From Eledone cirrhosa (Eukaryota), in NCBI GenBank assembly GCA_964016885.1, contig OZ024741.1, positions 383,470,001 through 383,534,000 of the forward strand: 64,000 bases of DNA. Reading direction: 5' to 3'. Positions 18,537 to 19,681 of the stretch are shown here, piece after piece (the stretch's first letter is position 1; each line of letters begins with the position of its first letter). The position numbers and the translations under genes are program-made. The notes under the pieces were generated by a model, which was not told where the DNA came from, made no database searches, and was given only the letters and a program-made list of their open reading frames with translations.

Positions 18537-19681
18537 ATACATTTAAAATATATGATAAACACGAAATGTGTTTATATTGCAACAGACAAAGTTAGCCATT
18601 AATGAAATAAACTAATTAAAGTGAATACAATTTGTCTGTCTCGATACAAGTCAATAAAGACAAGCTTATATTGGCAACGGCCATGATTCCTGGACATATT
18701 TAAATTTCAAAATTCAAACCTGTTCTGTAGACGAATTTGAACCTCGAAACCCAAATAAGTTTCGCTACGGTGGAATGTGAATTGAAAAATAAAGAGAATC
18801 GAAATGGAATAGAAATAAAAGAATGAAATATCCAAATCTTCTGTGCTTATCAACAGGAATCCAGTAAAATTATTCTATCTCACATCAAAAATTTTGCAGG
18901 TCTGACTACACGTGCGTAGGCAGGCCAAAACTAGCTGTCCCGCATTCACGGTGCCAGAAATTATAGCCGCTTATGCAGGATTAAGGATCAGCTCTAAAAT
19001 AAAGGAGCTATACATTATATTATATTTTGAGAATAAACTCTCAGTCGTTTACAATAATTAAGCTCCAGGAGGGGGCTCTTCCGAGCAGTTAAATACATTT
19101 AAAATATATGATAAACATAATATAATGTATAGCTCCTTTATTGTAGAGCTGATCTTTAATCCTGCATAAGCGGCTGTTATTTCTAGCACCGTGAATGCGG
19201 GACAGCTAGTTTTGGCCTGCCTACGCACGCGTAGTCAGACCTGCAAAATTTTTGATGTGAGATAGAATAATTTTACTGGATTCCTGTTGATAAGCACAGA
19301 AGATTTGGATATTTCATTCTTTTATTTCTATTCCATTTCGATTCTCTTTATTTTTCAATTCACATTCCACCGTTACGAAACTTATTTGGGTTTCGAGGTT
19401 CAAATTCGTCTACAGAACAGGTTTGAATTTTGAAATTTAAATATGTCCAGGAATCATGGCCGTTGCCAATATAAGCTTGTCTTTATTGACTTGTATCGAG
19501 ACAGAAAAATTGTATTCACTTTAATTAGTTTATTTCATTAATGGCTAACTTTGTCTGTTGCAATATAAACACATTTCGTGTTTATCATATATTTTAAATG
19601 TATTTAACTGCTCGGAAGAGCCCCTTCCTGGAGCTTAATTATTGTAAACGACTGAGAGTTTATTCTCAAAATATAATATAA
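18537..19681. mobile_element. ORF-less HHR-bearing element: two inverted, differently permuted ~556-nt monomers inside (TA)n
   Basis: Left arm 18537-19117 begins and ends with atacatttaaaatatatgataaaca (period 556); right arm 19118-19681 is its reverse complement with a different start point; HHR at 18685-18861 (-) and 19279-19455 (+). Confidence 0.8.

Follow-up and report, generated by a model that had tools for sequence, protein, structure and literature searches.

A dispersed non-coding 556-nt hammerhead retrozyme of Eledone cirrhosa with head-to-head arms and two fixed ends, very probably mobilised by a Penelope-like element

Structure of the locus

The stretch of Eledone cirrhosa DNA analysed here (the window, 64 kb of contig OZ024741.1) holds two head-to-head arms of a 556-nt unit with (TA)n on both sides (Table 1). 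As an earlier note on this DNA had stated, the right arm is the reverse complement of the left; the alignment over 19113–19687 is ungapped, with a period of 556. The 25-mer reported at both ends of the left arm recurs in full (18537–18561 and 19093–19117, 25 of 25 bases, period 556), and the right arm has its own end repeat of the same period (19113–19131 and 19669–19687). On the unit map of the hammerhead strand, with 19113 as position 1, the left arm begins at 467 and ends in the following pass at 494; for the right arm these positions are 1 and 19. Both 3′ ends face outward and dissolve into (TA)n, as had been described. The ends are indeed offset on the circular map, by 81 nt at the outer and ~90 nt at the inner ends instead of the ~95 nt first estimated. 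The few substitutions noticed between the arms come to ten over 19117–19682, with a further one at 19116, and at sites that are polymorphic in the family the arms disagree in 0 of 39 comparisons. The unit has no open reading frame, the longest stop-free frame within the arms being 58 amino acids. Public contigs (three runs on a single sample) match the arms as short fragments, and the inner junction is bridged by none of those shown. The element is a dispersed, non-coding hammerhead retrozyme with a 556-nt unit, whose two arms have two fixed ends in (TA)n.

Table 1 Features of the two-armed element and its surroundings, in window coordinates
Feature	Position	Strand	Remarks
Neighbouring PLE, 5′-truncated GIY-YIG end	18011–18496	-	Abundant PLE with Hydra-clade motifs; separate insertion
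(TA)n target, left	18508–18533	.	
Left arm	18534–19117	-	584 nt, 1.05 units; 3′ end is site A
End A, junction with (TA)n	18534–18539	-	A few shared T/A letters blur the exact base
Type I hammerhead, left arm	18685–18861	-	Predicted cleavage between 18693 and 18692; private stem II mismatch at 18766
Inner head-to-head junction of both 5′ ends	19113–19117	.	5-nt overlap, one mismatch
Right arm	19113–19687	+	575 nt, 1.03 units; 3′ end is site B
Type I hammerhead, right arm	19279–19455	+	Predicted cleavage after 19447; private stem II mismatch at 19375
Predicted RNA junction	19553–19652	+	Closing stem and two hairpins; 97% of 623 cells paired
'Tail'	19604–19685	+	~81 nt between A and B; outer end of right arm only
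End B, junction with (TA)n	19682–19687	+	
(TA)n target, right, then (GA)n	19688–19741	.	

Hammerhead ribozyme

All parts of the hammerhead that had been recognised by eye are present, namely an 8-bp stem I, a core with U3–A8 (a reported variant of Penelope-like element (PLE) hammerheads; PMC4209133), a long G–U-rich stem III and the GUC, and 83 nt separate the core from GAAA, in agreement with the ~80-nt stem II loop proposed. The family form of stem II has 3 bp in 41 of 50 loci; because each window arm has a private mismatch in this stem, 19270–19465 would be a poor substrate for a cleavage assay. A descriptor search matched the hammerhead in 57 loci and in one polarity only, and an Rfam scan of the window returned no hammerhead, only microsatellite and palindrome noise.

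Among 20 copies from three families, 94% of 826 cells are paired. The covariation expected of a maintained fold is found in 8 of 42 pairs that have changed on both sides (five in stem I, the 3–8 pair of the core and two in stem II), where the 20 copies represent three lineages, not 20 separate events, and the same sequences served to draw the structure. In stem III, 11 pairs show a one-sided change of the G–U type, which fits this strand only and so fixes the strand of the hammerhead. The core is canonical in a fourth family, whose stem I differs yet again, and degenerate in a fifth.

The insertion family and its ends

A search of the 3.0-Gb genome gave 1892 first-look candidates, 40 of which were scored. 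Exact junction patterns occur genome-wide at 89 A ends and 181 B ends; given that exact forms make up 24 of 41 A ends and 39 of 55 B ends in sampled loci, we estimate the family at a few hundred insertions. We analysed 135 loci, 76 from two similarity queries and 59 picked by their A end, from which an identity filter removed the A/B locus L260; 119 are distinct and complete, a set that the first similarity query biases towards long B arms and that includes a few segmental duplicates. These comprise 63 loci with one arm ending at A and one at B, 31 with a solo A arm, 18 with a solo B arm and 7 with two arms, one of them ending off-site; A/A and B/B insertions number 0 and 0 among the 119. The exhaustive set of exact A ends (n = 89), which is an unbiased check on the pairing seen in the similarity-query loci, contains 53 A/B, 30 solo, 6 off-site and 0 A/A loci. 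Its parts are 21 loci with an exact B end among those listed within 6 kb, always head-to-head; 53 fetched loci (21 A/B, 5 off-site, 27 solo); and 15 loci sampled earlier (11 A/B, 3 solo, 1 off-site). No B/B pair occurs among the 100 listed of the 181 exact B ends.

The outer ends keep to two fixed sites, A and B, which are separated by 81 nt, with shifts of a few bases among AT-rich positions. (TA)n adjoins 93 of the 96 outer ends sampled, namely 40 of 41 at A and 53 of 55 at B. Inner (5′) ends are scattered over the unit in 182 arms. Free variation of the permutations is not supported, since the outer ends lie at two fixed sites in all families examined and only the inner ends scatter. The collection of breakpoints that the earlier note had proposed, with fixed termini speaking against its reading, thus yields fixed termini on the outside and scattered ones on the inside. 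The offset between the arms is the 'tail' of PLEs, not a random breakpoint on a circle.

That both window arms, described as full monomers, are about one unit long is chance, the 182 family arms spanning ~45 to 1938 nt. Of these, 72 exceed 556 nt and 6 exceed two units, and the cleavage site is read through 174 times. Within 3 nt of that site there are 0 of 182 5′ ends where ~2 would be expected under a uniform distribution, which is an absence of pile-up rather than a depletion. At the inner junctions, BLAST-edge overlaps are inflated and an exact walk is confounded by nearby private changes; by exact comparison, only 26 of 59 junctions show a clear overlap of 1–4 nt, and 11 of 59 have at least 3 nt (null, ~6%). 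Extra templated pieces occur in 7 of 60 loci.

Sister families

Flanking sequences led to four homologous non-coding families with units of 549, 527, ~510 and 545 nt, the first three of which share 53–81% identity with each other and with the 556-nt family. Every one has two fixed ends at matching positions, with tails of ~83, 66, 86 and 85 nt. Among distinct loci, A/B insertions number 8 of 25 in one family and 6 of 16 in another; of the 30 loci fetched for each of the other two, 12 and 13 are A/B (read from listings). No A/A or B/B insertion was found in the four families, the remaining loci being solo, off-site or compound. A shared motif of 28–29 nt has no exact match in metagenome contigs.

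One 26-kb array consists of ~50 units of the 527-nt family (L192:4252 to L195:604, G000:C2:383780251-383806604), with a B end and (TA)n at both sides and units reshuffled in a satellite-like manner. It is a retrozyme insertion grown into satellite DNA. Neighbouring units differ at ~24 positions (41 units compared), a heterogeneity that makes such arrays unlikely templates of multi-pass arms.

Start-site fold

Sites A and B lie in or near a predicted RNA junction (Table 1), in which 4 of 25 pairs have changed on both sides among 25 copies from four families. Site A falls in a single-stranded, AU-rich linker of the modelled fold and site B ~30 nt beyond its 3′ side. The predicted junction is the best candidate for a protein-binding element.

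Candidate partner enzyme

The PLE next to the element comes from a family of very high abundance (60271 candidates), which has the motifs DKT, CxCx5C, CxxC and CxH, and RWK in the locus L191. PMC8557442 gives these as characters of the Hydra clade, whose members insert into (TA)n and carry hammerheads; the clade was read from the motifs described there, with no tree, and Pfam gave no name for the GIY-YIG fragment. The motifs together with the (TA)n targeting make a Hydra-clade PLE a likely helper. The neighbour itself is neither a part nor the parent of the element, as it has no DNA likeness to the unit, including at its 29 other loci, and its ends dissolve in long microsatellites that blur any A/B reading. 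No autonomous PLE with a homologous pseudo-LTR was found in 260 loci and the window (nhmmer) or in 30 further loci (tblastn context); these searches returned only further non-coding families.

Six PLE fragments in the window, from several families, are akin to the Hydra-type neighbour (18011–18496, 27487–28554, 30764–32181, 47550–47840, 53644–55602 and 56983–57817). At L191:575-9764 a 9-kb inverted duplication contains two nearly intact PLE ORFs (~780 amino acids) with a sister-family monomer at each end; we rejected this palindrome as a partner because the duplication takes in the flanks. Solo retrozyme arms lie head-to-head with 5′-truncated PLE ORFs at L282:1-2090, with no (TA)n in between, and at L204. 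Such fusions, found at 2 of 86 solo arms, are about what ORF density leads one to expect, and the L282 PLE has no evident likeness by eye, so we do not count them as partner evidence; they are possibly mixed-template insertions, or chance.

Mechanism of insertion

We propose, with a probability of roughly 0.6, that this non-coding hammerhead element is the product of an RT/GIY-YIG enzyme of Penelope-like type, for which a single RNA, probably circular, serves as template while the two cut strands of the target act as primers. That it is a retrozyme mobilised by a PLE is very probable, and that the arms arise from two primings rather than from fold-back is probable. The route we infer would begin with transcription of a more-than-unit copy, from which the hammerheads would release a monomer that is then ligated into a circle. 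A PLE dimer, probably of the Hydra clade, would bind the conserved junction and nick both (TA)n strands; one target 3′ end would prime at A and the other at B, aided by a few A/U pairs. Both cDNAs would proceed round the RNA and stop at random, and microhomology repair would join their two ends, with the loss of one arm leaving a solo A or solo B copy. In PAc (Poseidon of Anolis), as described in PMC11167929, a tail is bounded by two internal RT start sites, and a predicted dimer cuts and extends both strands. The same study counts against our explanation in that the PAc start sites showed no strand difference in vitro and had no target homology. Strict pairing has 7 two-armed loci with an off-site end against it.

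Haplotypes bear on the template. At 41 shared polymorphic sites, discordance amounts to 24 of 1482 comparisons between the arms of a locus (67 loci) and to 16 of 855 between tandem passes (49 loci), or 1.6–1.9% within insertions, against 28% between loci (22209 of 78617, 28.2%, in 1200 random locus pairs). Private differences, at 0.8–0.9% within loci, are near the between-locus level of 1.2%, and so point to no recent homogenisation. Each insertion thus derives from one haplotype. The claim that a circular or multimeric RNA is reverse-transcribed from two positions is supported by the arms longer than a unit (72 of 182), the 174 read-throughs and the single haplotype per insertion. A bottleneck through a monomer followed by re-multimerisation, that is, a circle, is the simplest account of the latter. 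A single master locus supplying all RNA in each germ cell would leave the same pattern, so a shared haplotype proves neither one molecule nor a circle. Circles have been proposed for PLEs (PMC4209133) and shown as RNA for other retrozymes (PMC7229834), and from the sequences we lean slightly towards a circle as the template here.

The same enzyme and the same two primings could instead act on a linear multimer that stays uncleaved and is transcribed from a master copy both young and homogeneous, with the hammerhead acting rarely or at another stage of the cycle. PAc accepts unprocessed RNA in vitro, and its ribozyme mutants insert normally from uncleaved RNA (PMC11167929). A9U in the hammerhead core is carried by 29 of 81 classifiable loci that are as young as the remainder (the lineage includes L093, L015, L016, L027, L028, L098, L100 and L101); a discussion of this change, sought in the text of PMC3088659, was not found there. 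The success of this lineage, with the PAc mutants, suggests that cleavage may not be needed. Within it, positions 189/260 go from A·G through U·G to U–A among haplotypes, a stepwise change that would extend stem II. Arms of up to 3.5 units are possible masters. Linear copying, however, cannot raise the number of units and should transmit unit-to-unit differences, whereas passes agree in 839 of 855 comparisons at polymorphic sites, and do so over many haplotypes. The only long array analysed, the 26-kb one of a sister family, is heterogeneous with its ~24 differences between neighbours, and compensation maintains stems I–III. We regard a linear multimer as unlikely.

Fold-back, on models taken from PMC3846280 and PMC8557442, would start from a single priming at B, copy the cDNA into an inverted arm by self-priming and have the endonuclease trim it at A. 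It predicts both the strict A/B pairing and the shared haplotype, and it allows the nesting of one arm inside the other at 43 of the 63 A/B loci, which counts against two primings: the A arm lies within the B arm at 39 and the B arm within the A arm at 4, and 4 have a symmetric centre. At the other 20, the window locus included, neither arm is nested; the lengths of A and B arms are uncorrelated (Spearman 0.01, 63 loci), 30 of 89 exact A ends are solo, and fold-back would require frequent later one-sided deletions of the centre. Such deletions could rescue it, for which reason we keep it as an improbable account and do not lower it further.

We give very little credence to an integrated viroid-like, self-replicating RNA that was randomly primed: size and the folding of the circle (z-score −3.4, 25 shuffles) would suit it, but the descriptor search found the hammerhead in one polarity only, the predicted fold is branched and 60% paired, the ends are fixed and copies lie 0.5–0.9% from the column majority. 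Least credible of all is an origin without an RNA step, by DNA repair or gene conversion of a satellite monomer or as an assembly fold-back artefact, which can point to the satellite-like turnover of the sister-family 26-kb array and to an inner junction left unbridged by the public contigs shown (three runs, one sample), but has against it arms that differ at 10 sites with different ends and flanks. Also against it, several families combine fixed 3′ ends and scattered 5′ ends with insertion into (TA)n and with covariation that fits only one strand.

Extending two primings by one PLE-type enzyme, we put forward tentatively, at somewhat less than even odds, that asymmetric twin priming is obligate for PLEs: a dimer on one circular RNA would begin one cDNA at each of two sites defined by structure, then roll round the circle. 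If true, three traits of PLEs, namely their one-sided tail, head-to-head inversion and partial tandems, would follow from this single step, and the five families of 500–560 nt would be minimal natural PLE substrates.

Relation to known elements

In twin priming by L1, two target 3′ ends prime one RNA and the head-to-head arms are joined by microhomology; the second priming site is variable and occasional. Here, unlike in L1, both sites are fixed and internal and the arms can exceed one unit.

Non-LTR retrozymes are described as non-coding, low-GC elements with consensus lengths of 51 to 972 bp, proposed to be non-autonomous derivatives of PLEs that move through circles (PMC7229834; bioRxiv 10.64898/2026.07.22.740005). 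The present element resembles them in being non-coding and low in GC, with more-than-unit repeats, a type I hammerhead per unit and no LTR. It differs in occurring mostly as dispersed insertions of two head-to-head arms, whose outer ends in (TA)n are fixed at two sites; PMC7229834 nowhere uses the word 'inverted', and the sections of the preprint consulted describe monomers, dimers and multimers only. Stem III, with ~28 pairs in 30 columns, and the 83-nt stem-loop II also set it apart from most metazoan motifs as described there, in which stem III is short and palindromic.

Like the EN+ PLEs of PMC8557442 and PMC3846280, which have a pseudo-LTR, an inverted 5′-truncated copy and a tail of 30–40 bp, the element shows head-to-head inversion, a tail at one end, ragged 5′ ends, a microsatellite target and a hammerhead in the repeat; unlike them it has no ORF, the whole element is the repeat and the tail measures 66–86 nt across the families. 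With PAc it shares two RT start sites downstream of the hammerhead that bound the tail, an AT-rich target and extension of both strands (PMC11167929), and it departs from the PAc described there in using one site per arm, in AU-rich linkers beside covarying hairpins, with a few letters in common with the target. As a class it is not an autonomous PLE, the unit having no RT or GIY-YIG ORF; not a viroid-like replicon, given one hammerhead polarity and a branched fold; and not a plant LTR retrozyme with a type III hammerhead in its LTRs, since stem I is here the open stem and there is no LTR pair.

The element class, the 'inverted arm plus tail' anatomy of PLEs and the two RT start sites are already known. 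Strict one-of-each pairing, un-nested arms and twin priming by PLEs or retrozymes are not reported in the literature searched, mainly titles and abstract openings. PMC8557442 states the origin of the tandem and inverted structures and of the one-sided tail of PLEs as open, and the sole in vitro study found two start sites without saying, in the text seen of PMC11167929, how they pair. Small families such as these offer a countable genomic record of one A and one B end per two-armed insertion, one haplotype and independent arm lengths. This record speaks for two primings and against the fold-back idea in print, and the 556-nt unit offers a substrate with a defined, if predicted, start-site fold for direct tests of the open PLE mechanism.

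Other features of the window

At 62193–62639 there is an unrelated two-armed element in (TA)n with relatives in many loci. Each of its arms has a small canonical type I hammerhead (62322–62386, minus strand; 62528–62600, plus strand), and the left arm extends ~95 nt past the end of the right arm, again a one-sided tail. A palindrome at 63462–63716 has a hammerhead-like motif in each arm (63494–63553, minus; 63626–63685, plus), part of it being repeated at 63257–63300. A broken non-LTR retrotransposon with an RVT_1 domain occupies 20444–22173 on the minus strand, and near-perfect palindromes at 40959–41058 and 47341–47469 gave spurious microRNA matches in the Rfam scan. The segment 10001–14000 has a strong GC skew of 0.71–0.78 and is probably a G-rich tandem repeat.
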